The notes under the pieces: model-generated
Seen by the model: only the letters and a program-made list of their open reading frames with translations
The model's database searches: none
Told to the model about the DNA's origin: nothing
DNA from: Candidatus Brennerbacteria bacterium
Lineage (GTDB): Bacteria; Patescibacteriota; Minisyncoccia; UBA6257; GWB1-50-10
DNA: 64,000 bases
Assembly: GCA_016183535.1 (NCBI GenBank)
Contig: JACPEK010000003.1
Span: forward strand, 327 to 64,326
Reading direction: 5' to 3'
In this document: positions 16,993 through 32,268 of the stretch, piece after piece
Layout of the letters: the number at the start of each line of letters is the position of its first letter
Numbering within the stretch: position 1 is the stretch's first letter
Program-made: the position numbers and the translations under genes

Positions 16993-19728
16993 TTACCTCG
17001 GCGTCTCTTCGAAGAACTGGCGCGAGGTGCCGACGTCGCGGCACTGATTGTTGTTCACGCACTGCGCCTCGGACGCGCGCCCGTTTTGAGCGGGTATCTT
17101 GTAGTTTTCTTTCTGCCCGCAAAAGCTGTTCTTGAGGCAGACGTTCACCTTCGCGGCTCCCTCCCGCACGGCACCCGCGGGGAGTGTTTTCCCCGCTCCT
17201 TCTTCGGCGGCATAGGGAGTACAATCGTTCGCGCTGTAGCACGCCCGCACGCGGTAGAGGTATGCCGTATCCGGCTCAAGTCCGATATCTTCCAATACGG
17301 AATTGTTGAGTTCAGAGCCTCCGCGCTGGAACTGTTTGAAATAAACCTCGAGTTTTTCTTTCTCGAGCGTCACGCCGTCCACCGGCGGATATTCGATGGC
17401 GGCGAACGCGGCGTTGAGCCACGTTTTTACGCGGCCCCACGCGCGCTCCGCAAATCCAAGAGTCGCGGCGGCGAATTCGCGCGCGCCGCCCACCGCCGTT
17501 TCGATTGTCTCACGCAGGTTCGCCGTAAATTTCCCGGCGGGTTCAAGTAACGTTCCCGTCTGCGTGAAGTACACGCGATACTCGAGCCACCCGCCTTGCT
17601 CGCCAACAAAGCCGGTGCCGGTTGTCGTGAGTCCCTCGGACGGCCGCCCCTGCGAACCCGACGAGTTGTCCCATTCTATTTTTTGAAACGCGGTGCCGGG
17701 GGACGGCGTACCGCCGACATAGGAAAATGTGAATCGCTGATCCGACCCTGTCGGATAGTCGGCGAGTTTAGTGAAAGGCACCGCCGTAACACCCGAAACG
17801 ACCGTAGTCCGTCCGGAATCAAGGAGCGAGAAATCAATGTTGCCGGAAGTTTCGACTCCGTTTACAAACGCCTTCACGCGCAGGGTTTCGTTCACAACCG
17901 AGGTCGGCGTGAAGAGCGCGCTCACGTCCGCGTTCGCGGTAAGCGTCCAGGCGCAAGTCGCGCTCGTCGAATTGTTGCACGGCCCGCTCGTCCACCGCGT
18001 GAAAGCGTATCCCGCGGCGGGTGTTGCGGTGAGCGTAACGGGAGTGGCGTATTCGAAGGAGCACGTCCGGCCGCTCGAACAATCTCCGCTTATTGTGCCG
18101 CCCGTGGGCGAAGCCACCGCCACTTCCGGATCCGTGGTCGCGTTCCCCGTTGCGGCGGCTTTCGAGGTGGTGCGTCCCCACGGTCCGTCGCGAAAACTCC
18201 GAACTGAAACCGCATACTCGGTACCCGCCTGAAGACCGGTGACGCTGAACGTAGAAACGAACGAGTACCCTTGGGTATTCGACGCCGCGCCATTCTTCGG
18301 CGCCTCGCAGGCGCCCGTGGCGCAGTTCCCCGCGCCCGGCGCGGGCGCGACCGTCACCGCGAAACCGTCTTCGCGCCGCGAGTAATCCCTCCACTGAATC
18401 GAGAGTTTATTGTTGTCCACCGTCACAAATCGCATATCGGACGGCGCGGCGGGCAGGGTCGAGGTACCAACATAGCCGATGTCGCCATATTTCCCGCACG
18501 CCTCGGCGGGTATGTCGTTCTGCCCCGCGGTCGGCGCTGCGCGCGTGTAGTCCGCCCTAATGAGCGAGCATCCGCGCGCGCGGTAATAGTAATCGGTGCC
18601 TTCGCGGAGGCCGTCATCAATTTTTTCGTACGAGGTTTTCGTCTTCGCCCAATCCGCGTCGTCCGCAAACGCGAAGGGACGCAGAGTAAACGACGGGTCG
18701 CACAGCGTGGTATTCACATATTTGCATTCCTGGCTGTTGTCCTTGCGATCGGCGAAGGGGTTGCTCGAGGTGCTCCGCTCGAACGCGTGGTAGTAGGGAC
18801 CCTTCAGTTGCTTTCGCGCCCCGTTCGCGTCCGCGTTCGTGAAGTTTTTCCATGAGAGTTTGATCTCGGTGTCACTCACGGTAACGACACCCGCCACATC
18901 GGTGGAGGGGAAGACGGGTTTCTCCGGCGTGAGCTTGATGCGCTGGAGCTCGAAAGTGTGGGGCTTCACCGCGTTATCCTTCCAGTTCACAAGGAGCGAG
19001 GAGGGCGAGAGCGCCCATGCGTAGAGCTTCGACGGCGTGTCGGGAGAAGTGGCGAGCGTTTTACAAGATACGTTGGGTGTACTCGTTGAAACATTCCCCA
19101 CCGTCCACGCAAGGAAATAGATATGCTCCTCGCCTTTTTCAAAATCGCCGCCGTCTTCGTACGAGCCACTGCCGGTCGGGAGAGGCGGCGGGGGCGCGAT
19201 CTTTTTATTGTCGCGGAAAAGTGTGAGCGTGTGCGGTTTCGTCACGTTCCCGTTCCAGTTGACGGTGAGTTTTGACTCGGTCGAAATACCGCACTTGAGA
19301 TAGTATTCCTCCGCAACGGCCGGCCCACCCTTCTCCGTTTTCACGATCACGATATTCGAATCCTCGGACATAATAGATACGTCGAGATTGCCCGTCTGTG
19401 TCTCCCCCGCCTTCGCAGTCTGGAGCTGGTACTTGTAAACGCCACTCTCGAACGGCTGGCCGCCGTTCGTGTCGAGGAATGATTTGTCGCCGGCAGTGCG
19501 GTCAAGATTTGGATTTAGAACCCTAGGCTCCGTTCCTGGTCCGCTGACTTTCCTTAACGTCTGCTGGCTATAGCCCTCGACATTCTGCCACTTCAGTTCG
19601 ATAACATTCTGATCCGGCTTGTAGCCACCGCTGAAATCTTTGGGCCAATTCGTCGCCGCGAACCCGCTCGCGGGAAAGATAAGGGAGAGAATCGCAAGGG
19701 CAGAGAACAAGGAGCTGACGCGTTTCAT
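16993..19728 (-). CDS. Large secreted surface protein with FN3-like repeats and a divergent InlB B-repeat module
   Basis: 911 aa; signal peptide MKRVSSLFSALAILSLIFPASGFA; repeated LSWKN/LSIQWRD FN3 signatures; segment ATPVTLTATPAAGYAFTRWTSGPC...CAWTLTANADVSALF matches the InlB-B-repeat pattern. Confidence 0.75.
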   Translation of the reverse strand: MKRVSSLFSALAILSLIFPASGFAATNWPKDFSGGYKPDQNVIELKWQNVEGYSQQTLRKVSGPGTEPRVLNPNLDRTAGDKSFLDTNGGQPFESGVYKYQLQTAKAGETQTGNLDVSIMSEDSNIVIVKTEKGGPAVAEEYYLKCGISTESKLTVNWNGNVTKPHTLTLFRDNKKIAPPPPLPTGSGSYEDGGDFEKGEEHIYFLAWTVGNVSTSTPNVSCKTLATSPDTPSKLYAWALSPSSLLVNWKDNAVKPHTFELQRIKLTPEKPVFPSTDVAGVVTVSDTEIKLSWKNFTNADANGARKQLKGPYYHAFERSTSSNPFADRKDNSQECKYVNTTLCDPSFTLRPFAFADDADWAKTKTSYEKIDDGLREGTDYYYRARGCSLIRADYTRAAPTAGQNDIPAEACGKYGDIGYVGTSTLPAAPSDMRFVTVDNNKLSIQWRDYSRREDGFAVTVAPAPGAGNCATGACEAPKNGAASNTQGYSFVSTFSVTGLQAGTEYAVSVRSFRDGPWGRTTSKAAATGNATTDPEVAVASPTGGTISGDCSSGRTCSFEYATPVTLTATPAAGYAFTRWTSGPCNNSTSATCAWTLTANADVSALFTPTSVVNETLRVKAFVNGVETSGNIDFSLLDSGRTTVVSGVTAVPFTKLADYPTGSDQRFTFSYVGGTPSPGTAFQKIEWDNSSGSQGRPSEGLTTTGTGFVGEQGGWLEYRVYFTQTGTLLEPAGKFTANLRETIETAVGGAREFAAATLGFAERAWGRVKTWLNAAFAAIEYPPVDGVTLEKEKLEVYFKQFQRGGSELNNSVLEDIGLEPDTAYLYRVRACYSANDCTPYAAEEGAGKTLPAGAVREGAAKVNVCLKNSFCGQKENYKIPAQNGRASEAQCVNNNQCRDVGTSRQFFEETPR

Positions 19729-19795
19729 TGTTTCAATTATATCAAATTGGCTTCCTTGCTTGCTTTTTGGTACTCCGCTTATCCACCCTTTTTCA

Positions 19796-19824
19796 TTGAC
19801 TTTTTCATAGTTTTCATGTATAAT
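19796..19824 (+). promoter_or_regulatory. Consensus sigma70 promoter TTGACT-17-TATAAT for the BNR/T9SS cargo gene
   Basis: -35 at 19796-19801, exact 17-nt spacer, -10 TATAAT at 19819-19824; AAAGGAGAT RBS at 19852-19860. Confidence 0.7.
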
Positions 19825-19865
19825 TGAGGGCAGAAATAATTAATAATCATTAAAGGAGATTAGCC

Positions 19866-21164
19866 ATGAAACGGATATGGATGTATCTAGCAATGGCGTT
19901 GGTCATTGCGACTGCGTCCATTCCGAATGCGGGATGGGCGCAGGCGGTGTCGGCGGACATCACCATCAGTCGAAACCTTCTGCCGGACAGTTTAAGAAAT
20001 TATATTTATTCTCTCTGGGTAGACGGGAACGGTGATATTTTCACGACGATGCCATGGAAGGCGTTGCTCCGTTCGACGGATGACGGGGTGACGTGGAAGC
20101 AGATCTTCAAGAGAGATTTTCTCTCTAATTTCGGGTTTGCGGTCATGCGCGATCAGAAAACCAATGCACTCCTCTTTGGAAACGGGGGGGGGTTGTACCG
20201 GTCAAGCGACGATGGCGCAAGCTGGACCTTTGTATGGGAAAAGGGAGCGGGATGTTTCCTTGTGAAGCCAGACGGCTCTATTCTCGCCGGCACCGGTAAA
20301 CATATCGGCCATTCCGAAGATGGAGGCGTGTCGTGGAAAACGGTACTCTACCGCGACGACCACTATTTCAACGTGGAAGCGCTCGCGATGAGTCCAAAGA
20401 CGGGTTCTCTCTTTGCGGGCACCGCGGACACTATCGGTTTGGGCGTGCTCCGCTCAACTGATGATGGCACAACGTGGCACCAGTCGAACAGCGGTCTTGG
20501 GGATCTTCATGTGTGGGCGCTCGCCACGGACAATAACGGAACCATTTACGCGGGGGTCGAGAGAAAAGGTCTTTACCGTTCCACTGACGATGGAGTCACG
20601 TGGGAGAAAGTACCAGGATTCAACGCTTCACCGAGAAACGCCATCGCAATTCTCGTGCTGAAGCCCGATCTTATCTGCGTCGGTTTTGGCTGGAAGGGTG
20701 GCGGCGATCCCGTGGGAAAGGGTGGCGGCTTCAAATATGACGGCAAGGCGTGGACGCAATTTATTGCGGACTCCATAGATGTAACCTCGTTCGCAGTGAA
20801 GGGCAAATCGCTCCTTGTCGGCTCGTTAGACGCTATCTACCGCGTGGACGGGGCGATCGATACGCCGGTGTCCGTGGAAGAGGAACCTGATGTAATCCCC
20901 TCCTCGTTCGTTCTGCATCAGAACTTCCCCAATCCCTTCAATCCGAGTACCACGATAACCTTCTCGCTTCCCGATCGAAGCCATGTACGCCTCGCGGTGT
21001 GGAACGTGATCGGCGAGGAAGTCGCAACGTTGGTCGAGGAAGAACGGTCGGCTGGGATCCATCGGATTGTTTGGAACGCCAAGGGTCTCCCGAGCGGTAT
21101 TTATCTATACCGGATGCAAACAGAAACATCAGTACAGGCAAAGCGGATGATGCTGCTGAAATGA
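19866..21164 (+). CDS. Secreted BNR/Asp-box repeat beta-propeller protein with T9SS-type C-terminal sorting domain
   Basis: Signal peptide; about six S-x-D-x-G-x-T-W Asp-box repeats (STDDGVTW, SSDDGASW, HSEDGGVSW...); C-terminal 80 aa NFPNPFNPSTTITFSLPDRSHVRLAVWN...GLPSGIYLYRM...KRMMLLK matches Por_Secre_tail. Confidence 0.85.
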   Translation: MKRIWMYLAMALVIATASIPNAGWAQAVSADITISRNLLPDSLRNYIYSLWVDGNGDIFTTMPWKALLRSTDDGVTWKQIFKRDFLSNFGFAVMRDQKTNALLFGNGGGLYRSSDDGASWTFVWEKGAGCFLVKPDGSILAGTGKHIGHSEDGGVSWKTVLYRDDHYFNVEALAMSPKTGSLFAGTADTIGLGVLRSTDDGTTWHQSNSGLGDLHVWALATDNNGTIYAGVERKGLYRSTDDGVTWEKVPGFNASPRNAIAILVLKPDLICVGFGWKGGGDPVGKGGGFKYDGKAWTQFIADSIDVTSFAVKGKSLLVGSLDAIYRVDGAIDTPVSVEEEPDVIPSSFVLHQNFPNPFNPSTTITFSLPDRSHVRLAVWNVIGEEVATLVEEERSAGIHRIVWNAKGLPSGIYLYRMQTETSVQAKRMMLLK

Positions 21165-21182
21165 TATTCAAAGGGCTTGATA

Positions 21183-21218
21183 CATAAGTATCAAGCCCTT
21201 TTGCTTTTCTAATTCGTT
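21183..21218 (+). terminator. Rho-independent terminator, copy 1 of a repeated hairpin (gggcttgatac...gtatcaagccc plus T-run)
   Basis: 11-bp perfect stem; near-identical copies at 28738 and 31540, each right after a CTD-encoding 3' end. Confidence 0.8.
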
Positions 21219-21312
21219 GGTTTCAAAGTAATAAGCCATATTATTAAATTTTACATTTCCCAAACTTCATGATAAAACATTCTTAGAATCTAAATAATTT
21301 AAGGAGAAAACA

Positions 21313-21819
21313 ATGAAACCATTACTGATTCTTATCTATGGTCCTAACGGCGCCGGTAAAACTACCCTAGCTAGAGCTCTTGCCACAAAATATCGCGGGC
21401 TTCAAATCCAGATCGATACATTCTCAAGTATGGCCCGAGGTAGGTTTTGGCATACACGCCAGAATAATAAAGACAAAATGGTGCTTGTGCTGGGAGTTTT
21501 GGATGCCGCAATGAAAAGTACGAGTCACCGGCGGTTTTTCCTTGAGGGGGTATTAATTTATCCATTTATGTTCAAACTACTCGAGGCCTGGTGTAAGAAA
21601 AATTTCGTGAAGTTTGTTCCAATTTATCTGACCGGAAATCTTGTTGATCTCGATTTCAGAATCAGACACCGGAAAATCTTGAAGAAAAATTGGAATGAGC
21701 ACCTCCCAGAATTTTTCGAGAACTTTCATTATAAGAAAGCTCGAAAAATATCTAGCTCAGGCAAGACATCTCAAGTTGTATTGAAAGAAATTCAAGCAGT
21801 AATTGGAGAAAGGGGGTAG
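21313..21819 (+). CDS. Small P-loop NTPase/kinase-like protein
   Basis: 168 aa; Walker A GPNGAGKTT near the N-terminus; low-GC; first gene of the island operon. Confidence 0.55.
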   Translation: MKPLLILIYGPNGAGKTTLARALATKYRGLQIQIDTFSSMARGRFWHTRQNNKDKMVLVLGVLDAAMKSTSHRRFFLEGVLIYPFMFKLLEAWCKKNFVKFVPIYLTGNLVDLDFRIRHRKILKKNWNEHLPEFFENFHYKKARKISSSGKTSQVVLKEIQAVIGERG

Positions 21820-21822
21820 GCC

Positions 21823-22257
21823 GTGGAATATTCTATGAGCATTCTTAAGCCAGATTGCATCGAGAGAAACATGGAGGGCACCGTGCGAAGAATGTTAACC
21901 GAACACGGCTTCCTCGTTCTCTTAGAAAAGAGGACTAGACTTTCGTTGGACGATGTATCGTTTATCTATGAGAGATGTGTCGGCGAAGATTTTTTTAAGG
22001 ATTTTGCGGCATTTCTCACGTCTGGCGACGTAGTCGTGTTGGTTCTTTCAAATCCTACGTCCAAAAACGTGATAAAAGATTTGAATAGCCTTGTTGGTCA
22101 TACTAATCCTCAGCTTGCAAAAGACTATACCATCAGAAAGCTTGGAGAAAGCGTTCGCCGGAACCTCGTCCACTCATCAGCAGATCCCCCATCTTTTTGG
22201 AGAGAAGCTTCACGGATGTTTTCTGAGAAGGAGATGTGCGATGCGGGTCTTGAATAA
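21823..22257 (+). CDS. Nucleoside diphosphate kinase-like protein (divergent)
   Basis: ILKPD near the N-terminus and NLVHSSAD (NDK His-active-site region NxxHxSD) near the C-terminus; possible alternative start ATG at 21835. Confidence 0.6.
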   Translation: MEYSMSILKPDCIERNMEGTVRRMLTEHGFLVLLEKRTRLSLDDVSFIYERCVGEDFFKDFAAFLTSGDVVVLVLSNPTSKNVIKDLNSLVGHTNPQLAKDYTIRKLGESVRRNLVHSSADPPSFWREASRMFSEKEMCDAGLE

Positions 22258-22291
22258 AAATTCTTGACCCGCTTTTGTTATAATTTTCCAT

Positions 22292-22570
22292 ATGGATCTA
22301 GAAAGATTTGAAAAAGATTTTCAGAAAAAGTTGAAAAGTTATCCGAAAGTGTGGGGTAAAGAGGAACGTATCCTTCACCTCGTGGAGGAGATTGGAGAAT
22401 TTGCTGAAATCACTCTCCAATATAACGGAAGGAAGGAGCCAAAAAGGAACCTTACTGATGTTAAAATTGCCCTTGCCGACGTTCTTGAAGATGTCCTCGC
22501 CCTTTCAGTCCTCTATGATTTAAAGTTTGAAAAGCTTCTAGAGGAGATTATTAATGAAAAAAATAACTAG
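22292..22570 (+). CDS. MazG-like all-alpha nucleoside triphosphate pyrophosphohydrolase (small)
   Basis: 92 aa; EEIGEFAE metal-binding EExxE motif typical of MazG-like NTP-PPases. Confidence 0.6.
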   Translation: MDLERFEKDFQKKLKSYPKVWGKEERILHLVEEIGEFAEITLQYNGRKEPKRNLTDVKIALADVLEDVLALSVLYDLKFEKLLEEIINEKNN

Positions 22571-23342
22571 AGCCACTTACGCTCTAACACTTACTGAAGC
22601 ATTGCGCCTTCTAAGGAAGGAAACGAGCGTTTTGAGAAATTTAGAGTTCATCGCGTTACTTGGTAGCGTAAAGATCAAAGAACACGTTCCGGGATATAGC
22701 GATTTGGATTTGCTTCTTATACTCAAATCTGACGCTAGTGGAGCTTTAGACGAAAAACTTCTTTTAGAGTTGCAAAAAATATGCGCAGATTTGTCGAAAA
22801 CTTATCGAATAAATATCTCGTTTTTGACTCATACAGAAAAAGAATTGGTCGAGTATGTCGACTACGAATATTTGAAACATTATTCATCGGGTAAATTGCT
22901 TTATGGGAAACCAGAATTATTTTCGAAACTTTTTAAAAGGATAATTTCTAGAAAGAAATCCTATGGTAAGAAGCTAGTGAGAGAAATGTTCAAAAGCATT
23001 GTCCATGCCCGCTTTAATCTTATAAGAAAGTTTGTATCTCTAAACAAATTCAATACTAGAAACTATCGGGATGGTTTACTGAAATTATTTATCGATAATT
23101 TGTTTGAAATAGCTGACTGGAGACTCATCGCCGATGAAATCTGGTGCGTTTCTAAAAAAGAAATTGTGAGTAGAATATTTTCGATCTCAAAAAGTCCACA
23201 CAGGGAAATATTGGAAAGCGCGTATAAATATCGCAGAGACTGGAATCATTTGGTTGTTTCCAGTAAACAAGCCAGATCTTTTTTTATTAGTGGGATTAAA
23301 TTTATCAATGACTGCGTTCGTGATCTAGAGAGACGAACATGA
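22554..23342 (+). CDS. Nucleotidyltransferase (Pol-beta superfamily minimal NTase) domain protein
   Basis: GS-x11-DLD motif (LLGSVKIKEHVPGYSDLDLLLIL) followed by a helical C-terminal domain; overlaps MazG by 17 nt and GT4 by 4 nt. Confidence 0.6.
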   Translation: MKKITRATYALTLTEALRLLRKETSVLRNLEFIALLGSVKIKEHVPGYSDLDLLLILKSDASGALDEKLLLELQKICADLSKTYRINISFLTHTEKELVEYVDYEYLKHYSSGKLLYGKPELFSKLFKRIISRKKSYGKKLVREMFKSIVHARFNLIRKFVSLNKFNTRNYRDGLLKLFIDNLFEIADWRLIADEIWCVSKKEIVSRIFSISKSPHREILESAYKYRRDWNHLVVSSKQARSFFISGIKFINDCVRDLERRT

Positions 23343-24442
23343 GAATTGTCTTTGTTTCAAGGTCGCTCCCATATCTTGGAGGGAGGGAGGTTATAGTGGA
23401 GCGATTAATGGAAAAATTAAAATATAGACATCATATTTTATTACTGACGCCGGATGCCGGACTGAAAAGAAGAGGCATTAAAGTCGTTAACATAAATAAA
23501 AACCTAAAAAGAATAGTTGGGGGGTTTAGGCCTGATATTATAAGTTGCCACACGTTTTATTTTTTTAACCTCGCATATAAGCTATCCCGCGCTCTAGATG
23601 TTCCCCTTATTACAACGTTCCATGGAATGTTTTTGAGACTTTATGGCAAAGATTATCGCTCAATAATCAGAAATATTTGTGAAAAAAGCTTCGTCGTTAC
23701 TGTGGTCTCTAGAAACTATAAGGAGGAGCTCATTCGCGCCCTACGAGTCAGCAGGGCAAAAATTTCTGTAATTAAGAATGGTATACCAAAAGGCGAGGTT
23801 TCTCGGATCAATAAAAATATTTTCAAGTTAAAAAATTATATTCCTTTGGACAAAACTCTCGTCGTTGTCCCAGCTCGAACCGATAAGATTAAAGGACTTG
23901 AGTATCTTATTGGAGTTGCAAAAAAAATAAAGAATGGGGGCTTTTTCTTTTTAGTGTGTTCTCCAATCGGACGCCATAACAATTGGGAGAAGTTATTTAT
24001 GAAAAAACTAGTAGAACTCGCCCCTCCTAAAGATGTAATTGACTTCAGAGAATATGCTCATTCAGATTTACAGAAGCTCTTTCACGTCTGCGATATCTGC
24101 CTTCTCCCCTCGCTGATGGAAGGCGTGTCGATTTCAATTCTTGAAGCAATGGAGAAAGGTTGCATTGTAATCACAACCAATGTTGGAGGAAGCCCAGAAG
24201 TCATAAAGAATGGAGTGAACGGATACTTAATTGAACCGAGAAATGTTAAGGAAATTGTGCATGCACTTGAAAGGTGTACTAAACTCACAAAGTTTACTAG
24301 AGAGAAAATAAAAAACAACGCGAGGAAAACTGTACAAACTAGATTTTCCGAGGAAAAGATGTTAAAATCCTACGAAGATTTATTCCTTAAAGTAATCAAG
24401 AGGCATGAAAATAAGCAACGACGCACAAGCGGTAGTTTATAA
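23339..24442 (+). CDS. Glycosyltransferase family 4 (GT-B, group 1)
   Basis: C-terminal EGVSISILEAMEKGCIVITTNVGGSPEVIKNGVNGYL matches the GT1/GT4 EX7E region. Confidence 0.75.
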   Translation: MRIVFVSRSLPYLGGREVIVERLMEKLKYRHHILLLTPDAGLKRRGIKVVNINKNLKRIVGGFRPDIISCHTFYFFNLAYKLSRALDVPLITTFHGMFLRLYGKDYRSIIRNICEKSFVVTVVSRNYKEELIRALRVSRAKISVIKNGIPKGEVSRINKNIFKLKNYIPLDKTLVVVPARTDKIKGLEYLIGVAKKIKNGGFFFLVCSPIGRHNNWEKLFMKKLVELAPPKDVIDFREYAHSDLQKLFHVCDICLLPSLMEGVSISILEAMEKGCIVITTNVGGSPEVIKNGVNGYLIEPRNVKEIVHALERCTKLTKFTREKIKNNARKTVQTRFSEEKMLKSYEDLFLKVIKRHENKQRRTSGSL

Positions 24443-24839
24443 GCAAGGAGATCAGGGGTTGTTGTTTCTTGTGTTGAAGCGTTTTGATCCGGATAAGAAT
24501 GAGACTCATTATCGACTGATAAAGGGAAGGATTAAAGAAAAAGAAGGTGAAACTTCCGAAGTAGCGGTTTTGAGAGAAATAAAGGAAGAAGCTGGACTTA
24601 CTAAGTTGAGAATCGTTTCAAAAATTCCTAGTTATTCTTATGAAGCGGGCGATGTCAGACATGAAGTAAGCGTCTTTCTAGTAGAAAACACTGCGGAAGA
24701 GTTGGTAAGTGTTGACTCCAGCGAAGAAGGTGCGTTTACCATAGAAGGCGCAACGTGGTTTAGGGTGGAGGATATAGCAACGAAGTTAAACTTCGAGGTA
24801 GAGCGAGCGGCGATTCGGGAGGGATTAAAGCTCGTTTAG
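24405..24839 (+). CDS. Nudix hydrolase
   Basis: Nudix box GRIKEKEGETSEVAVLREIKEEAGL (G-x5-E-x7-REVxEExGU); start overlaps GT4 by 38 nt. Confidence 0.7.
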   Translation: MKISNDAQAVVYKQGDQGLLFLVLKRFDPDKNETHYRLIKGRIKEKEGETSEVAVLREIKEEAGLTKLRIVSKIPSYSYEAGDVRHEVSVFLVENTAEELVSVDSSEEGAFTIEGATWFRVEDIATKLNFEVERAAIREGLKLV

Positions 24840-25859
24840 AATATTTTTAATGGCGTTTTCGCTCGACTGCGAGCGGAATAATTTCACATTCTTTAAGAAA
24901 TTTGGGTGAGAGTTTTCCTCGAATCTTCCCTCGAAATCTATAACAAAAACCCTCTTTAGTAAGCTACTTGCTATCTGTATCAAGCTTCCTTCCGCGCCAA
25001 CTGCGGTGTGACAACTTGCAAGCTCAATTAGTGTTTCTCGATAGCTTAGCCTATTCACAAAGTTTATAACCTTAGGGGAAACCCTGATGGCTCCATTCCC
25101 TTTTCCTAAGAGTGCAACGGCGTTCCTTCTTTTGTTGATTTTATGAACCAAACTCTCTGTTTTCTCAAAACTTTTTGAGGTATCTTCGACACCGGCGATT
25201 ACCCCGATCCTCTTGTGCTTCCTTTTTGAATATATCAACTCCTTTTCATTGGTGGAAAAAAATATTTTTGGCTCGTATTCGTAAAACTTAGTTCCAAGGT
25301 AATGTTCGGAAAGTTTTTGCCACGCTAAAGTATTTCCAAATTTACCAAAGATATCTCGCCACGCTTTAAGATCCCTATCAAACACGATCACTGCCGCTCT
25401 TAAAGAAAAAAGCATCAGCAACGTTTCTCTTAATGTATCTCTTCCAAGGCCAACAAGAATACAGTTCCCCCTTATAAATTGGAATCTACTTCGAAACGAC
25501 CAAATGTGAATCGAATCAATGTTGGGATTATTCTCTAGTATTTGCGCATGTCCTCGAGTAGTTAAAATAGAAACCCGATACCCATCCCTTTTCCAATTTT
25601 CAAAAAGACCTGTCTGGAAAAAAATATCCCCATATCCCTGCTTCAACGGTTCCACAAATAATATGTTCTTTATGCCTCGTAAATTACTCTTTTTGGGGAT
25701 AAACCATATGAACGCGGTGAGTATAATATCCCTTAATACAAAGAACAGCATGAAGATCAAAGCATAGAAAAACCCTTTCTTTTTCCTGATCTTATGGTAC
25801 TTTCTCCTGATCCTTTCCAGATACGTTATGTGCATATGTTCGGTAATATTATCCGACAT
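24825..25859 (-). CDS. Glycosyltransferase family 9-like (heptosyltransferase-like)
   Basis: 344 aa; N-terminal ILFVEPLKQGYGDIFFQTGLFENWKR...NNPNIDSI resembles GT9 ADP-heptose:LPS heptosyltransferases; low-GC. Confidence 0.55.
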   Translation of the reverse strand: MSDNITEHMHITYLERIRRKYHKIRKKKGFFYALIFMLFFVLRDIILTAFIWFIPKKSNLRGIKNILFVEPLKQGYGDIFFQTGLFENWKRDGYRVSILTTRGHAQILENNPNIDSIHIWSFRSRFQFIRGNCILVGLGRDTLRETLLMLFSLRAAVIVFDRDLKAWRDIFGKFGNTLAWQKLSEHYLGTKFYEYEPKIFFSTNEKELIYSKRKHKRIGVIAGVEDTSKSFEKTESLVHKINKRRNAVALLGKGNGAIRVSPKVINFVNRLSYRETLIELASCHTAVGAEGSLIQIASSLLKRVFVIDFEGRFEENSHPNFLKNVKLFRSQSSENAIKNILNEL

Positions 25860-25861
25860 GC

Positions 25862-26134
25862 ATGCTACTTACTCAACATGAATATTCGCAGAACTACCCG
25901 AACCCGTTCAATCCAACGACGACCATCGCCTTCTCGCTTCCCGACCGAAGCCATGTACGCCTCGCGGTGTACAATGCGCTCGGCGAGGAAGTCGCGGCCT
26001 TGGTGGACGAGGAAATCGCGGCCGGCACCCACAAGACCACGTGGGACGCCTCCGGACTCCCGAGCGGCATCTACTTTGTGCGAATGAATGCTCACACATT
26101 CACCGCCACGAAGAAGATGGTGTTACTGAAGTAG
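25862..26134 (+). pseudogene. Orphan T9SS C-terminal sorting domain fragment (5'-truncated cargo gene)
   Basis: 90-aa ORF is essentially only NYPNPFNPTTTIAFSLPDRSHVRLAVYN...GLPSGIYFVRM...KKMVLLK; high-GC, abutting a low-GC gene with a junction near 25885. Confidence 0.7.
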
Positions 26135-26144
26135 ATTTATTTAA

Positions 26145-26178
26145 AGAGCCGATTGCACATGCAATTGGCTCTTTTTTG
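26145..26178 (+). terminator. Rho-independent terminator after the orphan CTD fragment
   Basis: agagccgattgca / tgcaattggctct hairpin followed by TTTTTTG. Confidence 0.65.
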
Positions 26179-26196
26179 CGGGGCACTAATTTTTTA

Positions 26197-26916
26197 TTAT
26201 TCCTCTAAAAACCACCTTGCCGGCAATGGCCCACCGGATTTTTTATAGATATGCTTTACCAAACCAGAAAGAATCATTTTTTTAATCTCAATACTGCTCG
26301 CTTTATAAAAATGTTCAACTTGGTTAGAAAATTTTCTATCCGTTCTTTTTAAAATCTTCCGCATCTCGTTCGGTTGTCTTAAAAACTCTCCGCTTAACTT
26401 AAGGAACAATTCCACAATGTTGGTGATCAATAAATGGCTGTCGATGCCAAATGCCAAATAATCTTTGCCTTTAATGTCACGTTGAACCTCCCCCCAAAAA
26501 TCATCAATGGAGTATTTGTGCATTAAAACCTCTCCATTTTTATATTTAGCTTTTAACTTCAGATTGTCTCTAGCAACTATTTGGATTCTCTCTAAGCTCC
26601 GCCGTCTTTGAAAGAGAATCCTGCCGTGCGCCAGCATATGTGAGGTTATTCTTCTCAGGCCATTTCTATCCTCCTTAAGATATTTTTTAGCTTCCGCCCA
26701 TGTATTAAAAATAATGTCCACACGAACCCCGTTTTTGATAAAATTACTTCTGGAAAATTTACCACTTTGGCTCAAGAGGATATATATGTCAACGTCCGAA
26801 TATGTATCAAATTTATTTCTTGCCACAGATCCGAATAGTAAAATACCCAAGACATTTTTGTCCGGTTTATATTGATCTACTACTTCGCTGCAAATTTTTT
26901 GGATGAACTTCTCCAT
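26197..26916 (-). CDS. Nucleotidyltransferase domain protein (Pol-beta superfamily, paralogous class to 22554..23342)
   Basis: LFGSVARNKFDTYSDVDIYILL GS-x9-DVD NTase motif; 239 aa; low-GC. Confidence 0.65.
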   Translation of the reverse strand: MEKFIQKICSEVVDQYKPDKNVLGILLFGSVARNKFDTYSDVDIYILLSQSGKFSRSNFIKNGVRVDIIFNTWAEAKKYLKEDRNGLRRITSHMLAHGRILFQRRRSLERIQIVARDNLKLKAKYKNGEVLMHKYSIDDFWGEVQRDIKGKDYLAFGIDSHLLITNIVELFLKLSGEFLRQPNEMRKILKRTDRKFSNQVEHFYKASSIEIKKMILSGLVKHIYKKSGGPLPARWFLEE

Positions 26917-26978
26917 AAATAAAAATAGGGCTAAGGTAAGTATAAAACTTTTCCTTAGCCCCGCGAAGTCGTCACCCT

Positions 26979-27080
26979 CTAGTGGCAGTTGCTGGGGCTT
27001 TGACAGGTGCAGAACACCTTTAGCTTCGGCAGTGCCTTGACTTTGAGGATCGGCTGCTGTTTGAGCTTCGTCTTCTGCAT
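26979..27080 (-). CDS. Putative RiPP precursor peptide (33 aa, Lys-rich leader, C-terminal C-x-C-x6-C)
   Basis: GGAAAGGAGG RBS, then ATG 5 nt after the rSAM stop codon; MQKTKLKQQPILKVKALPKLKVFCTCQSPSNCH; same strand and immediately downstream of the rSAM/SPASM enzyme. Confidence 0.55.
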   Translation of the reverse strand: MQKTKLKQQPILKVKALPKLKVFCTCQSPSNCH

Positions 27081-27085
27081 AGCAT

Positions 27086-28525
27086 TCACCTCCTTTCCGT
27101 TGCAGGTTGGAGAAGTTCCGGCCCTGACGCCGTCGCTTCCCGCAGTTGTTCTCGAAGAATCTCGTGGGTCATACGGCGGTAGAAGTCGCACATTCGTTCG
27201 ATCTTGACGGTTTTCGTCGCCCGAGCGAACTCTTGCGTAATGTTGCAACCACCACCGCACTGCCCTTCGATCATGCACCCTTTACACATTTCCATTACTC
27301 CGGTGAGATGATCTCTCACAAAGCGATGATAGGCGGTGCCTGACGCATGAAACGACTGGATTTCCGAGAGACTCCCGAGTTGGGTCGTGCTGTAGCCACA
27401 TCCGTAGATGTTTCCGGACGGGCCTACGCACATGCTGTTGCCGCGGACTGCGCCGCAGAACGCGACACGGCTTTCGAGCGTTGATCCGTTAAGATTCTCG
27501 GCTGGCCGTGACCAGAAGCCGGGAACATCAACGCCTCGTGCCGCCGCGTAGCGCCGAATCCGCATCAGCTTTGCGACGACATCTTCAATCGGAATTTCCA
27601 CCATATCGACAACGTCGATATCAATCCTGACGTTCTTCATGCCGCGGGTTACTGCCCAGTCGACAATCGACTCGTCAAGTTCGTGAAAATTCTTTTCGGT
27701 GACTGTCACCGCGATGCCATCGAGTGGATACCCCGCTTGCGCCAACGCATCGAATCCACGCATTATTTGGGAGAATGTACCGCCCCCAGACTTCGTCAAG
27801 CGGACGTGATCATTTCCCTCGCGCAAGCCGTCGAGACTAGAAGCAATCTCGACGCGATGTTCTTTGAGAATCGCGGCGATATCTGGCGTAATGAGTGACG
27901 CGTTCGTGTTGATCGAGAAGTGAAACTCGAATTCCGAACCATAGGCGATACGGCAGTATTCAAACATCTGCTTGATGACTGGCCACGCCAACAGCGGTTC
28001 GCCTCCACCAAAGTTGATCTCGGCGACACGCTTTCCATGACCGCGAAGAATCTCGAGATACCGATCCACCGTTTCCTTGGCTGTGTCATACCGCATAAAC
28101 TTTTTGGGGTTGTTGATGCGGTCAGAAGTTTCCAAGTTGTTAAAGTGGATGCAATAGGTGCAACGGAAGTTGCACGCCTCACTCATGATGAGCTCGAGAT
28201 AATCAATCAGCGAACCGCTGATAATTTCCTTTTCCCCTTCTCGCATCCGCTCTTCGAGAAATGCTCGGTCATCGAAACCCTCTGGAACAAGGAAATGACA
28301 CTGCAAAAATTCCTCAATTGCTTCCCGATTTTCGTCGGTCAACTCATTGCCGACCTGTGAACGAACCGTTATCGGCTCGGAGAACGACTCAAGAAATTCG
28401 AGCGTCTCAACGGGAACAACTCTTGGGTATCCAAACAGTGAGTGCCAAATCACCGCAGAGTCGCCATCTAGAACGGCCTGCACGAACGGCGACTTCGTGT
28501 AAGCGACATTAAGGTTAAGTGCCAT
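27086..28525 (-). CDS. Radical SAM / SPASM-domain peptide-modifying enzyme
   Basis: CNFRCTYC (CxxxCxxC) radical-SAM cluster motif near residue 125; Cys-rich SPASM region CGAVRGNSMCVGPSGNIYGCGYS...CKGCMIEGQCGGGCN; about 100-aa N-terminal extension that could be an RRE-like domain. Confidence 0.8.
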   Translation of the reverse strand: MALNLNVAYTKSPFVQAVLDGDSAVIWHSLFGYPRVVPVETLEFLESFSEPITVRSQVGNELTDENREAIEEFLQCHFLVPEGFDDRAFLEERMREGEKEIISGSLIDYLELIMSEACNFRCTYCIHFNNLETSDRINNPKKFMRYDTAKETVDRYLEILRGHGKRVAEINFGGGEPLLAWPVIKQMFEYCRIAYGSEFEFHFSINTNASLITPDIAAILKEHRVEIASSLDGLREGNDHVRLTKSGGGTFSQIMRGFDALAQAGYPLDGIAVTVTEKNFHELDESIVDWAVTRGMKNVRIDIDVVDMVEIPIEDVVAKLMRIRRYAAARGVDVPGFWSRPAENLNGSTLESRVAFCGAVRGNSMCVGPSGNIYGCGYSTTQLGSLSEIQSFHASGTAYHRFVRDHLTGVMEMCKGCMIEGQCGGGCNITQEFARATKTVKIERMCDFYRRMTHEILREQLREATASGPELLQPATERR

Positions 28526-28727: not shown

Positions 28728-28737
28728 CTTTATTAAA

Positions 28738-28776
28738 GGGCTTGATACAAATGTATCAAGCCCTTTTGCGTTTTGT
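28738..28776 (+). terminator. Rho-independent terminator, repeat copy 2
   Basis: gggcttgatacaaatgtatcaagccc plus TTTTGCGTTTTG; near-identical to copies 1 and 3. Confidence 0.8.
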
Positions 28777-28801: not shown

Positions 28802-28993
28802 ATGGCCACCGCAACTTTTCTCCAAAAGCTGAATACGGAATTGAAACGCATCGTTGCGCACGCGGTGCTTGATACCCTTACTGACCCCGATCTCGGCGCA
28901 GAACTCACCCTGCATGCCAAGCGACGTCTGCGCGCGGCCGCTCGCGGACGAAGCGTTGCCACGCTCGCGGAGATAAAAAAGAAACATTACTGA
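28802..28993 (+). CDS. Putative type II antitoxin (addiction-module component, TIGR02574-like) paired with the RelE/ParE toxin
   Basis: 63 aa; stop overlaps the toxin start (ATGA); position and size typical of an antitoxin. Confidence 0.5.
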   Translation: MATATFLQKLNTELKRIVAHAVLDTLTDPDLGAELTLHAKRRLRAAARGRSVATLAEIKKKHY

Positions 28994-29265
28994 TGGGCAG
29001 ATGGTCGCTCGGGTTCACGCGGAGTGCTGAGGAGGACCTCGCGCAATTGGATCGGCCGGTCCGTCGCCGCATTATCGACAAACTCGAATGGCTATCGGCA
29101 CACTTCGATGGAATTATCCCCTCGGCGCTACATGCGGAGTTCCGCGAGTTCTACAAACTTCGGGTGGGCGACTGGCGTGTCGTTTATAAAATCGAGTGGC
29201 GCAAATACTCCATCATGATTTGCTACATTGACCGCCGCGACCGGGTATACAAAAAAGGAAGGTAG
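28993..29265 (+). CDS. RelE/ParE family type II toxin
   Basis: 90 aa; YKLRVGDWRVVYKIE...IMICYIDRRDRVY matches the RelE/ParE core. Confidence 0.7.
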   Translation: MGRWSLGFTRSAEEDLAQLDRPVRRRIIDKLEWLSAHFDGIIPSALHAEFREFYKLRVGDWRVVYKIEWRKYSIMICYIDRRDRVYKKGR

Positions 29266-29267
29266 TT

Positions 29268-29597
29268 ATAGACACCGCTCTCAAACGGCTTGCCACCGTT
29301 CGTGTCGAGGAGGGTGACTTCTCGCCGCTTCCTACCCACTACTCACTGGGACAAAACTACCCGAACCCATTCAATCCCACGACCACGATCACCTTCTCAC
29401 TTCCCGACCGAAGCCACGTACGCCTCACGGTGTACAATGCGATTGGTCAGGAAGTCGTGAAGTTGGTTGACGAGGAGGTCTCCGCAGGCACCCACAAAAC
29501 AACGTGGGACGCCTCCGGCCTCCCGAGCGGCATCTATTTCTATCGTTTGGAAACGAAGCAATTCATCCAAACGAGGAAGACTATGTTCATGAAGTAG
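29268..29597 (+). pseudogene. 5'-truncated T9SS cargo gene fragment (linker plus complete CTD)
   Basis: Reading frame open from 29268 with no start codon; ..HYSLGQNYPNPFNPTTTITFSLPDRSHVRLTVYNAIGQEVVKLVDEEVSAGTHKTTWDASGLPSGIYFYRLETKQFIQTRKTMFMK*; followed by a hairpin terminator at 29611-29645. Confidence 0.65.
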
Positions 29598-29775: not shown

Positions 29776-29834
29776 GTAACTAGGTTATTTCCGAGAGGAA
29801 AATTTAAAATCTAGATAAGGAGGTGAGAAAGACG

Positions 29835-30065
29835 ATGGTTCAAGCTGATGACAAAAAAAAGCTCCGGCAAATCAAATTCAGGGATAGCGATTTTCACAAA
29901 GCTAGCGGTACCCTGATGAGGAGAATCTGCGTTATGGTCGCACATAAAAAAGGCGCCATAGCAGTGCGCGATTCAAAAGATGCATTGAAGAAAACGCTCA
30001 TTTTCAACGAAGCAGAATGGAGCGTTTTCATCAAGGGCGTCAAGGCCGGCGAGTTTGATATATAA
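29835..30065 (+). CDS. DUF397 domain protein
   Basis: CVMVAHKKGAIAVRDSKDALKKTLIFNEAEWSVFIKGVKAGEFD closely matches the DUF397 consensus (..VRDSKDP.GP.L.F...EW.AF...VKAGEFD); alternative GTG start at 29823. Confidence 0.7.
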   Translation: MVQADDKKKLRQIKFRDSDFHKASGTLMRRICVMVAHKKGAIAVRDSKDALKKTLIFNEAEWSVFIKGVKAGEFDI

Positions 30066-30147: not shown

Positions 30148-30903
30148 ATGGAAAAAAATCTAAAAATAAAACTTTCAAAAGAGTTTTCACTATACGGGAA
30201 ATTTAGTGGTTCTTTTAATCAGCCATTATTTATTATTGCACACGGGTTTTCGGGGAATATGGATGAAGAATTTTATCGTTTAGCTACTTATTGGTTTGGA
30301 AAGCATGGGTTTTCAACATTCCGGTTTAATTTTTATGGTCATCAAAAAGATGCTCGGCAGCTTATGAATTGTACTCTTAAAACACATAGCACTGACTTTG
30401 ACACAATTGTTCGTTATTTTAGAAAGCGTGGGGTGAGGAAAGTATTTGTTGTAGGACACAGTTTTGGTGGATTGGTAATTTTTTGTTCTCGCAATCAAGA
30501 TTTTGACGGTGCGGTGCTCTGGGATCCATCTTACAAAATTTCATTTACAAAGACGATGTTTGGTTTTCCGGGCGGGAAATATATAAAAGAGATAAATGGT
30601 TATCTTATGAAATGGGGGGTAAATTTGATTATTGGAAAAGTAATGGCAAAAGAAATTGATTCACTTCAATGGGATTCAATAGCAAAAAATTTTAAAGTGC
30701 CTTTTAAAATAATTCTTGCTGGAAAAGGTGCGCTTAAAGGCACAAAAAAATATCTAAATAATGCAAAGGTGGAGAAAGATTTGATGATTGTAGAAGGAGC
30801 AACACATTATTTTAATGATCGAGATGGGATGCAAGAGAAAGTTTTTAAATCTTCTGAAGAATGGTTTAGAAAATTTATAAAAATTCGTCGTCATTATAAT
30901 TAG
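30148..30903 (+). CDS. Alpha/beta-fold hydrolase (serine esterase-like)
   Basis: 251 aa; nucleophile elbow VVGHSFGG; low-GC. Confidence 0.65.
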   Translation: MEKNLKIKLSKEFSLYGKFSGSFNQPLFIIAHGFSGNMDEEFYRLATYWFGKHGFSTFRFNFYGHQKDARQLMNCTLKTHSTDFDTIVRYFRKRGVRKVFVVGHSFGGLVIFCSRNQDFDGAVLWDPSYKISFTKTMFGFPGGKYIKEINGYLMKWGVNLIIGKVMAKEIDSLQWDSIAKNFKVPFKIILAGKGALKGTKKYLNNAKVEKDLMIVEGATHYFNDRDGMQEKVFKSSEEWFRKFIKIRRHYN

Positions 30904-31065
30904 GTAATTAGGGAGTTTTGTAACCATATGGTAGTAAAATACCCATATGGCACAAGACGAAAGAATGTTTTCGGTTGCGCGGCCAACTTTTTGAGGGGGA
31001 GAAAGTGTATTTTCTGTGGGTCGTTCAAGGTATGCAAGACGAAGCGCGACTATGCGCGGCGCCGC

Positions 31066-31529
31066 CACAAGACCTGTGGAAAACTATATTCTACCGCGAC
31101 GACCACTACTTTAATGACGAGAAGGAATGGACGCAAATCGTCGCCGATACCGCCTACACAGTGAAGGGAGAGTCTCTTCTCGTTGGTACTTCAAGCGCCC
31201 TCTACCGCGTGGATGGGGCGATCGATACGCCGGTGTCGGTCGAGGAGGATCCTGGCATAATCCCCTTCTCGTTTGGGTTGTCGCAAAACTACCCGAACCC
31301 GTTCAATCCGAGTACCACGATCACCTTCTCACTTCCCGACCGAAGCCACGTACGCCTCACGGTGTACAATGCGATTGGTCAGGAAGTCGTGAAGTTGGTT
31401 GACGAGGAGGTCTCCGCAGGCACCCACAAAACAACGTGGGACGCCACTGGATTCCCGAGCGGCGTCTACTTCGCCCGCCTCGAAACCAAAAGTTTCGTCG
31501 CCACGAGGAAGATGATCCTACTAAAGTAG
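31066..31529 (+). pseudogene. Internally deleted paralog fragment of the BNR/T9SS cargo gene (C-terminal propeller piece, linker, CTD)
   Basis: ..LWKTIFYRDDHYFNDEKEWTQIVADTAYTVKGESLLVGTSSALYRVDGAIDTPVSVEEDPGIIPFSF..CTD aligns to residues about 165-175 and about 290-432 of the 19866..21164 product; no plausible N-terminus or signal peptide. Confidence 0.65.
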
Positions 31530-31539
31530 CTTTATCAAA

Positions 31540-31574
31540 GGGCTTGATACATTCGTATCAAGCCCTTTTGCGTT
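31540..31574 (+). terminator. Rho-independent terminator, repeat copy 3
   Basis: gggcttgatacattcgtatcaagccc plus TTTTGCGTT. Confidence 0.8.
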
Positions 31575-32085: not shown

Positions 32086-32268
32086 GCAATATTCGAATCC
32101 TCGGACATAATAGATACGTCGAGGTCGGCTGTCTGCGTCTCCCCCGCCTTCGCAGTCTGGAGCTCATATTTATAGACACCACTCTCGAACGGCCGGCCGC
32201 CGTTCGTGTCGAAAAAAAATTTGTCACCGGCAGTGCGGTCAAGATTTGGATTTAAAACACCCCCCTAT
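32086..32268. repeat. About 180-bp relic copy (about 90% identical) of an internal segment of the large FN3 surface-protein gene (matches 19349-19533)
   Basis: Direct sequence comparison: aatcctcggacataatagatacgtcgag...cagtgcggtcaagatttggattta shared by both loci; the copy has no intact ORF context. Confidence 0.75.

Follow-up and report, generated by a model that had tools for sequence, protein, structure and literature searches.

The stretch analysed here (the window) comprises 64,000 nucleotides of contig JACPEK010000003.1, deposited as part of a Candidatus Brennerbacteria assembly (GCA_016183535.1), and the element under study is a low-GC block at positions 21313-26916 that carries a seven-gene cassette of predicted nucleotide- and sugar-handling enzymes. 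The block has a GC content of 0.394, its single genes range from 0.35 to 0.44, and its flanks stand at 0.56, a value (∼56%) that holds for the window away from the feature; the contrast pointed out in an earlier note on this DNA is therefore real, although the figures given there (36% within 60%) differ from the 39% and 56% measured. Six plus-strand genes, lying at the coordinates at which the earlier note had placed their open reading frames (ORFs), encode a P-loop kinase (21313-21819, 168 aa), a nucleoside diphosphate kinase-like protein (NDK-like; 21823-22257), a MazG-like protein (22292-22570, 92 aa), a nucleotidyltransferase (NTase) referred to as NT1 (22554-23342, 262 aa), a family 4 glycosyltransferase (GT4; 23339-24442), and a Nudix hydrolase (24405-24839). 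They are met by a convergent, minus-strand gene for a family 9-like glycosyltransferase (GT9-like; 24825-25859, 344 aa) that runs 15 nt into the Nudix stop. The tight coupling described earlier was also found, as the genes overlap at three of the five plus-strand junctions (by 17, 4, and 38 nt) and lie 3 and 34 nt apart at the other two. Beyond the GT9-like gene lie an orphan sorting domain of the type IX secretion system (T9SS; 25862-26134, plus strand) and a second nucleotidyltransferase, NT2 (26197-26916, minus strand, 239 aa). The orphan domain had been taken to mark the edge of the island; it sits instead well inside, with the GT9-like gene on one side and NT2 on the other, and with its GC content of 0.57 it splits the low-GC block into two pieces.

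All the cassette products fall in superfamilies already known, and Pfam upheld the identities proposed earlier for the NDK-like, GT4, and Nudix proteins and for the NTase cores, whereas the kinase was matched as a P-loop protein only and the MazG-like protein only weakly as a single sequence (0.013). The kinase has the Walker A motif GPNGAGKT and invariant residues D35, R42, W46, R49, N52, K55, and R120; its family profile likewise retrieved P-loop proteins only. An AlphaFold2 model (pLDDT 79) shows a small-kinase fold, for which Foldseek returned gluconate kinase (TM-score 0.70), followed by UMP/CMP kinase, Fap7, adenosine 5′-phosphosulfate kinase, and TmrB; sequence and model point to a small-molecule or nucleotide kinase whose acceptor would be either a sugar or a nucleoside monophosphate (NMP). 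The NDK-like protein matches PF00334 (5e-27; 94.7 bits against a cut-off of 27), retains the catalytic His (NLVHSS) and the KPD and TNP motifs, and in a full-length alignment to solved NDKs (∼30% identity) keeps KPD, Y, TNP, R, and N..VH. The fold, the catalytic His, and the nucleotide-binding residues of NDKs are thus present; the protein falls below every NCBIfam equivalog cut-off, which marks it as a divergent paralogue. The start of its gene is set at 21835 in the NCBI record. For the MazG-like protein, the family profile matches MazG-type structures at 2.5e-5 (2q73, 1vmg, 5ie9, RS21-C6/DCTPP1, and YpjD), and the metal-binding residues EExxE...D are invariant in the family alignment, as would be expected of a small all-alpha MazG-type nucleoside triphosphate (NTP) pyrophosphohydrolase. 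The families are small: among 5.8 billion proteins, the kinase family forms 26 clusters (all four of the named ones labelled as members of the candidate phyla radiation, CPR), the relatives of NT1 form 14, and those of the NDK-like protein only 7.

NT1 (PF01909, 3e-5) joins a Pol-beta core (GS...SDLDLL) to a HEPN-like helical domain with an invariant HARFN..R motif. Both NTases had been described as minimal, a term that fits neither, since NT1 (262 aa) and NT2 (239 aa) each consist of an NTase and a HEPN-like helical domain. In MNT-HEPN toxin-antitoxin systems, a minimal nucleotidyltransferase of ∼100-130 aa is paired with a separate HEPN toxin carrying Rx4-6H; such a system was rejected because both proteins are fused two-domain enzymes and the helical domain of NT1 carries HARFN..R, not Rx4-6H. 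The best structural relatives of NT1 are the aminoglycoside/spectinomycin adenylyltransferases AadA, ANT(3″)(9), and AAD(9). Enzymes of the AadA/ANT(9) type adenylylate hydroxyl groups of aminoglycoside antibiotics. NT1 shares their fold and catalytic NTase motif; however, identity is 13-19%, a negligible similarity, no NCBIfam ANT model was matched at its cut-off, and the NT1 profile retrieved nothing significant, ANTs included, from the sequences in the PDB. NT1 differs from these enzymes also in its own invariant HARFN..R motif, its coupling to GT4 throughout, its setting in an operon of nucleotide enzymes, and the absence of a resistance context. HalB, the NTase that is paired with the effector HalA in the Hailong system, resembles NT1 in fold only and is outmatched by AadA and AAD(9); a Hailong system was rejected because the cassette has a different gene set with no HalA-like gene, and no PADLOC or NCBIfam call exceeded its cut-off. 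The cGAS/DncV-like nucleotidyltransferases (CD-NTases) scored far under both the ANT and the HalB matches (Foldseek probability 0.3-0.5, TM-score ∼0.26). The second-messenger reading based on CD-NTases thus does not fit NT1, which is AadA/ANT(9)-like, and a cyclic-oligonucleotide-based antiphage signaling system (CBASS) was set aside on this poor match, on the lack of an effector in the cassette, and on the negative PADLOC result.

GT4 (PF00534, 1e-27) carries an EX7E motif and is predicted to be a retaining glycosyltransferase whose closest characterised relatives are the UDP-GlcNAc-using BshA enzymes; its PDB matches were 7mi0 and the BshA structures 5d00, 6d9t, and 2jjm. It reached 114 bits against the TIGR03999 BshA model, for which the cut-off is 274, and is thus not a BshA orthologue; unlike the bacillithiol pathway in which BshA acts, the cassette has neither BshB nor BshC. 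The Bacillus subtilis ypjD...bshB1-bshA-cca operon also holds a Pol-beta-fold NTase, Cca, and its YpjD is weakly matched by the cassette MazG-like protein, but Cca acts on tRNA and has no more than the fold in common with NT1. The Nudix protein (PF00293, 1e-13) has a Nudix box ending in REIKEEAGL and a conserved YSY motif downstream; searches of PDB and NCBIfam were uninformative as to its subfamily. The GT9-like protein of the window has no Pfam match, whereas five of seven orthologues match PF01075 (Glyco_transf_9; best 5e-6). A weak match to 1psw was found, and the profile retrieved nothing significant from PDB sequences; the alignment reveals invariant GD and GxEGSL motifs in the style of GT9, as well as an N-terminal hydrophobic segment.

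To survey the cassette elsewhere, the DNA around relatives of the NDK-like protein, NT1, and the kinase was read, and genome and metagenome collections were scanned with the NT1 profile (loci L003-L042). The cassette was found in ∼35 loci, all of 27-45% GC, with protein identities to the window of 37-68%; in loci long enough, its order is (P-loop kinase)-NDK-MazG-NT1-GT4-Nudix with the convergent GT9-like gene, which adjoins the cassette in most loci reaching past Nudix. NT1 and GT4 are neighbours wherever a locus extends far enough to tell and form an overlapping, invariant pair, and in four distinct loci (L018, L019/L033, L040, and L041) GT4 and Nudix are a single protein of 503-504 aa with the Nudix box intact. 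The common order and these fusions bear out the view of one conserved syntenic unit. The labelled cassette loci belong to the Patescibacteria group, Wolfebacteria, and Saccharibacteria, with a single exception labelled Nanoarchaeota; kinase-family proteins are labelled Pacebacteria as well, and the named relatives of the NDK-like protein, NT1, and the kinase come from the Patescibacteria group, Wolfebacteria, Pacebacteria, or the deposited “Brennerbacteria” record. The exception, a full cassette at 6980-9852 of L016 (DAISWR010000006.1), lies in a metagenome-assembled genome; its neighbours, TsaD/Kae1 and a weak TFIIE-like match, do not settle the archaeal label, which reflects either a cassette that has spread to DPANN archaea or one more case of wrong binning.

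Four rearranged variants (L009, L028, L036, and L037) combine the NT1-GT4 pair with activities of the same kinds, differently arranged, including Nudix, a dTMP-kinase-like P-loop protein, MazG, HD phosphohydrolases, and GT2. Among them, L037 has an APH-family kinase and a fusion of Nudix with an inorganic pyrophosphatase; L028 also has two radical S-adenosylmethionine (rSAM)/SPASM enzymes, a methyltransferase, and a VOC protein; and L009 adds GT2, GT1, and GT8 genes, the only locus of that kind. In CPR genomes, the cassette neighbours are housekeeping genes (BipA, Obg, an ABC-F ATPase, tRNA synthetases, and ScpAB), and ribonucleotide reductase (RNR), dCMP deaminase, and CYTH genes adjoin it in some loci. 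No Wzx/Wzy, ABC exporter, initiating transferase, or ordinary NDP-sugar enzyme stands beside it in the window or the loci examined, so that a capsule, lipopolysaccharide (LPS), or O-antigen module was rejected, in agreement with the earlier note, for which residence in such loci would have marked a routine polysaccharide module and a lack of conserved synteny would have argued against a single system; the shared order across the ∼35 loci and the non-polysaccharide context favour a single conserved system. Neither a known defence context nor an obvious mobile element was seen around the CPR cassettes. Pseudogenised copies occur at L003, L020, and L040/41, and in L046/L047 the BipA-ABC-F...Obg neighbourhood keeps just a cassette-type Nudix, which indicates that closely related CPR genomes differ by loss or gain of the cassette; it is accessory, not core, in CPR. 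None of the eight products had a system-level or equivalog match in the PADLOC, PHROGs, and NCBIfam scans, and literature searches found no published description of this gene combination, as the earlier note had anticipated in stating that no described system was matched; an Rfam scan of 19-32 kb returned nothing at E ≤ 0.1. The cassette as an accessory operon native to Patescibacteria/CPR, a group of ultra-small episymbionts, and undescribed so far is well supported.

NT2 had been counted as a member of the same unit; no homologue of it was found in any cassette locus, however, and it has only the catalytic NTase core in common with NT1. It matches PF18765 (Polbeta, 2.5e-7) and, weakly, LnuH, MntA, HalB, and LinB (NCBIfam HalB, 3.8e-4), which hints at a Lnu/KNTase-like two-domain NTase. 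Its nearest relative (74% identity) occurs on CPR contigs of up to 593 kb and adjoins GlmS; the orthologue is found beside GlmS in four CPR loci, L045-L048 (e.g., L046, 10001-12638). The distance from this gene to a cassette-type Nudix is ∼5 kb, the relative orientation is the one seen in the window, and the same neighbourhood holds the full cassette in L006, so that both low-GC pieces, the cassette and NT2, probably derive from one donor region. NT2 is a separate low-GC single-gene insert, also of CPR origin, outside the conserved cassette.

In the window, the foreign DNA starts directly past the terminator hairpin (21170-21201) of an intact T9SS cargo gene of the BNR/sortilin type (19866-21164). 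The left junction is followed by an AT-rich leader (21205-21312, plus strand; 27% GC over 21165-21312), with AAGGAG 7 nt upstream of the kinase ATG; the foreign DNA ends at ∼25860-25870, where a host-like sorting-domain remnant begins abruptly. This remnant, the orphan domain, matches Por_Secre_tail (5e-13), has its own terminator (∼26144-26180), and shows 76-80% DNA identity to the intact gene's sorting domain (20919-21103); it is a host-derived 3′ remnant of a truncated T9SS cargo paralogue and not part of the island. A second orphan sorting domain (29298-29594) lies past a ParE toxin-antitoxin pair, and a further cargo copy (∼31040-31529), 5′-truncated and internally deleted, lies past an alpha/beta hydrolase gene of 35% GC that has a DUF397 gene before it; the terminator hairpin of the cargo gene recurs as a host repeat, at 21170-21201, 28731-28773, and 31537-31568. 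Judged by its sequence, the region from 21.2 to 31.6 kb consists of cargo paralogues in decay, arrayed one after another, the 5′ parts of which have been replaced by accessory genes, and because each cargo remnant is preceded by accessory genes, the sorting-domain/terminator repeats may be recurrent replacement sites. Insertion by recombination between paralogous cargo genes, as proposed in the earlier note, could not be demonstrated, since the CPR DNA has no sorting-domain homology; the primary insertion was most likely illegitimate, replacing the 5′ part of a cargo paralogue, and later homologous exchange through the repeated sorting-domain remnants is plausible. A search of the island for a tRNA, an integrase, or direct repeats at its edges was negative.

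In the flanks, at 56% GC, T9SS type-A sorting domains occur at least four times, together with a set of type IV pilus genes and genes for a periplasmic adaptor of the CusB/HlyD type, UvrA/B, LigA, GAPDH, and a class II RNR. T9SS together with a tripartite-pump adaptor indicates an outer membrane. T9SS is characteristic of the FCB group (Fibrobacterota, Chlorobiota, and Bacteroidota) and is not known from CPR bacteria. Of all the cassette copies found, the one in the window alone lies in high-GC DNA alongside T9SS, type IV pilus, and CusB-type genes. In the deposited record, the whole 65.5-kb contig (proteins MBI2278650-MBI2278676) is labelled Candidatus Brennerbacteria; other Brennerbacteria records bear 41-44 in their names, which we take to be the GC percentage under the ggKbase naming convention. 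The label on this contig is probably a binning error, and by sequence only the two low-GC inserts look CPR-like within it. The same label, which names a CPR phylum, is one argument for an artefact, namely a CPR fragment joined in silico to the contig of another organism with no transfer having occurred. This possibility was examined with Logan contigs, assembled independently from two different runs, that reproduce the window at 99.98-100%, one over 19357-26068 (host flank, the whole cassette, and into the orphan sorting domain) and the other over 26048-27416 (orphan domain, NT2, and into the rSAM gene). Both stop inside the repeated sorting-domain sequence at 26048-26068, which could also be cited in favour of an artefact, but this caveat applies to that 21-nt join only: both low-/high-GC junctions of the cassette and both of NT2 lie inside single Logan contigs, every contig with these exact proteins also has the host flank, and host terminators and the cargo remnant meet the insert cleanly. 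The cassette junctions are not assembly artefacts; a chimeric assembly was rejected, and an artefact of assembly or binning in general is highly improbable. With the cassette complete, its reading frames intact, and its GC content un-ameliorated, the transfer was probably recent, and we are confident, short of certainty, that a CPR-native operon was recently moved intact into the chromosome of a T9SS-bearing diderm, where it replaced the 5′ part of a decaying cargo paralogue. The earlier note had not considered such a transfer between unrelated bacteria.

Several other features were recorded in and around the cargo array. The ParE-family toxin (28993-29265, plus strand; PF05016, 1.6e-6) is preceded by a 63-aa ORF, the likely antitoxin, the pair spanning 28802-29265. 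Another low-GC insert (∼35%) encodes the alpha/beta hydrolase (30148-30903, plus strand), with the DUF397 gene (29823-30065, plus strand) before it, and abuts the truncated cargo copy. Downstream of NT2, on the minus strand, a PapB-like rSAM/SPASM maturase (27086-28525; NF047865, 2.8e-41) is followed, 5 nt past its stop, by a Cys-rich 33-aa ORF (26979-27080; MQKTKLKQQPILKVKALPKLKVFCTCQSPSNCH); these two genes, in DNA of host GC content, are likely a ranthipeptide- or sactipeptide-type pair for a ribosomally synthesised and post-translationally modified peptide. A 165-nt repeat (89% identity) occurs at 19357-19521, in the 5′ region of the gene for a 911-aa surface protein, and at 32094-32258, in the DNA just downstream of GAPDH.

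As to what the cassette does, the invariance of the NT1-GT4 pair, the GT4-Nudix fusions, and the variants that keep the same activities indicate a single functional unit; the conserved linkage of activities is what the loci display, and the pathway built on it is put forward tentatively. The products may make up a closed cycle around a nucleotide carrier, in which a sugar is activated and passed on to an acceptor that is either part of the envelope or a small molecule, a possibility that we hold open rather than expect. In such a cycle, NT1 would use an NTP to nucleotidylate a sugar or sugar-phosphate, yielding an NMP- or NDP-linked sugar and pyrophosphate (PPi); GT4 and the GT9-like enzyme would transfer the sugar and free NDP or NMP; the P-loop kinase would re-phosphorylate the NMP, or alternatively phosphorylate the sugar; NDK would regenerate the NTP; and Nudix (by hydrolysis of NDP-X) and MazG (NTP to NMP and PPi) would trim or proof-read the pool. 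The generic reaction of each enzyme would thereby find its substrates and products within one cycle, which makes this the simplest reading that connects them all, and a carrier cycle would suit organisms that salvage nucleotides and do not make them. The Nudix-inorganic pyrophosphatase fusion in L037 fits an NTase step that releases PPi, and the GT4-Nudix fusion, the BshA-like glycosyltransferase, the GlmS neighbour of NT2, and the hydrophobic N-terminus of the GT9-like protein fit the carrier cycle as well. So do the AadA/ANT(9)-like character of NT1, the nearness of the modelled kinase fold to gluconate and other sugar kinases (NMP kinases following closely), the catalytic residues retained by NDK and MazG, and the GT9 matches of the five orthologues. 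A comparable logic is seen in the ADP-heptose pathway of LPS-core synthesis, where a kinase and an adenylyltransferase make an ADP-sugar and a GT9 transferase has conserved GD and G-x-(D/E)-(S/G)-G/S motifs like those of the GT9-like protein; the cassette, however, has no GmhA, HldE, GmhB, or HldD, and its kinase and NTase folds differ from those of HldE. CPR, the native hosts of the cassette, are not known to have LPS.

Several points weigh against this account. No Pol-beta-fold NTase is known to make sugar nucleotides, so that the NT1 step is an extrapolation. MazG and Nudix oppose synthesis, which would make the cycle futile unless regulated, and the putative membrane anchor of the GT9-like protein is a hydrophobic segment broken by a conserved R-D pair. 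The patchy distribution and the frequent decay (L003, L020, and L040/41) also fit conflict systems. On the side of origin, the deposited record assigns the whole contig to Brennerbacteria, and the recipient is taken for a diderm from the genes in the flanks. Origin and mechanism taken together, a CPR operon for a sugar-carrier cycle transferred to a diderm, nevertheless form our best explanation as a whole, one that we would still place somewhat below an even chance.

In the main rival to this account, the enzymes would serve a pathway to modified nucleotides that follows the example of phage T4, in which MazG would convert NTP to NMP, GT4 and/or NT1 would modify it, the kinase and NDK would re-charge it to the triphosphate, and Nudix would sanitise the pool, the product being meant for incorporation into nucleic acid or acting as an antiviral or antibiotic nucleotide analogue. 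T4 glucosylates hydroxymethylcytosine by means of gp56 dCTPase, gp42, the gp1 dNMP kinase, host NDK, and alpha/beta-glucosyltransferases, and the cassette resembles this set in pairing an NTP pyrophosphatase, a P-loop kinase, and NDK with GT-B glycosyltransferases; it is established that MazG, an NMP-type kinase, and NDK bracket NMP-level modification in T4. The variants, with their HD phosphohydrolases, dTMP-kinase-like proteins, two rSAM/SPASM enzymes, methyltransferase, and VOC protein, would suit such a pathway, as would the RNR, dCMP deaminase, and CYTH genes beside some loci and a distribution that is patchy and decay-prone; the nucleotide enzymes would be well accounted for. The analogy with phage DNA hypermodification drawn in the earlier note was nonetheless not supported: no thymidylate-synthase-like hydroxymethylase, DpdA, or other base-modifying domain was found in the window or in any examined locus, and the NT1-profile scan of viral contigs in IMG/VR recovered no relative, with generic matches only in PHROGs. 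In contrast to T4, moreover, the cassette has no phage association and contains an AadA-like NTase and a Nudix as integral parts, and its glycosyltransferases are a BshA-like GT4 and a GT9-like protein, not the phage alpha/beta-glucosyltransferase type. The hydrophobic N-terminal segment of the GT9-like protein points to the envelope, and the kinase fold, in the model, appears to resemble sugar kinases slightly more than it does NMP kinases. A modified-nucleotide pathway is therefore regarded as rather unlikely, though not negligible.

Two further functions are given little credence. In a nucleotide-signal defence akin to Hailong or CBASS, NT1 would synthesise an oligonucleotide as the signal, Nudix and MazG would break down the signal or its precursors, and the glycosyltransferases would be effectors or modifiers; the weak HalB match of NT2, the weak PADLOC candidate matches PDC-S07 and PDC-S09, and an accessory, patchy, horizontally mobile distribution could be read this way. 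PADLOC, however, called no system, and the cassette encodes neither a HalA-like channel nor another effector and lies amid housekeeping genes, not in defence islands. With AadA and AAD(9) outmatching HalB for NT1, CD-NTases matching poorly, and the NDK, the kinase, and the two glycosyltransferases left unexplained, such a defence system is very unlikely. Marginally less credible still is a cluster for aminoglycoside-like inactivation or immunity, in which the NTase, kinase, and glycosyltransferase would modify hydroxyls of a toxic glycoside produced by neighbours or hosts. That the nearest structures to NT1 are aminoglycoside/spectinomycin adenylyltransferases, that the modelled kinase resembles TmrB and other hydroxyl kinases, and that L037 has an APH-family kinase would agree with it; but the sequence similarity of NT1 to ANT is negligible, NDK, MazG, Nudix, and the GT9-like protein would have no role there, and the strict NT1-GT4 coupling and the GT4-Nudix fusion point to a pathway and not to parallel resistance genes.

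Returning to the carrier cycle, the cassette is read as a nucleotide-dependent glycosylation cluster, with a fair chance of genuinely new activation chemistry. A more specific form of this reading, which we consider doubtful as a whole, is a CPR-specific route of sugar (or nucleotide) activation in which an AadA-type NTase would replace the classical pyrophosphorylase and the kinase, NDK, MazG, and Nudix would recycle the carrier, the diderm copy being a footprint of transfer from episymbiont to host. Reported transfers involving Patescibacteria have mostly been exchange within the group or uptake by the group (PMC12455944). An un-ameliorated seven-gene CPR operon in a T9SS-bearing genome is a concrete case of the opposite, rarely reported direction; if true, it would be a footprint of gene flow from an episymbiont to its host and could reveal on which organism an uncultured lineage of Patescibacteria physically lives. 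A large part of bacterial diversity belongs to Patescibacteria, and their envelope and nucleotide biochemistry is almost unknown. The cassette, a compact seven-enzyme operon whose generic chemistries are predictable, would lend itself to reconstitution in vitro and may point to a route to activated sugars or modified nucleotides that departs from the canonical ones, in organisms dependent on nucleotide salvage.

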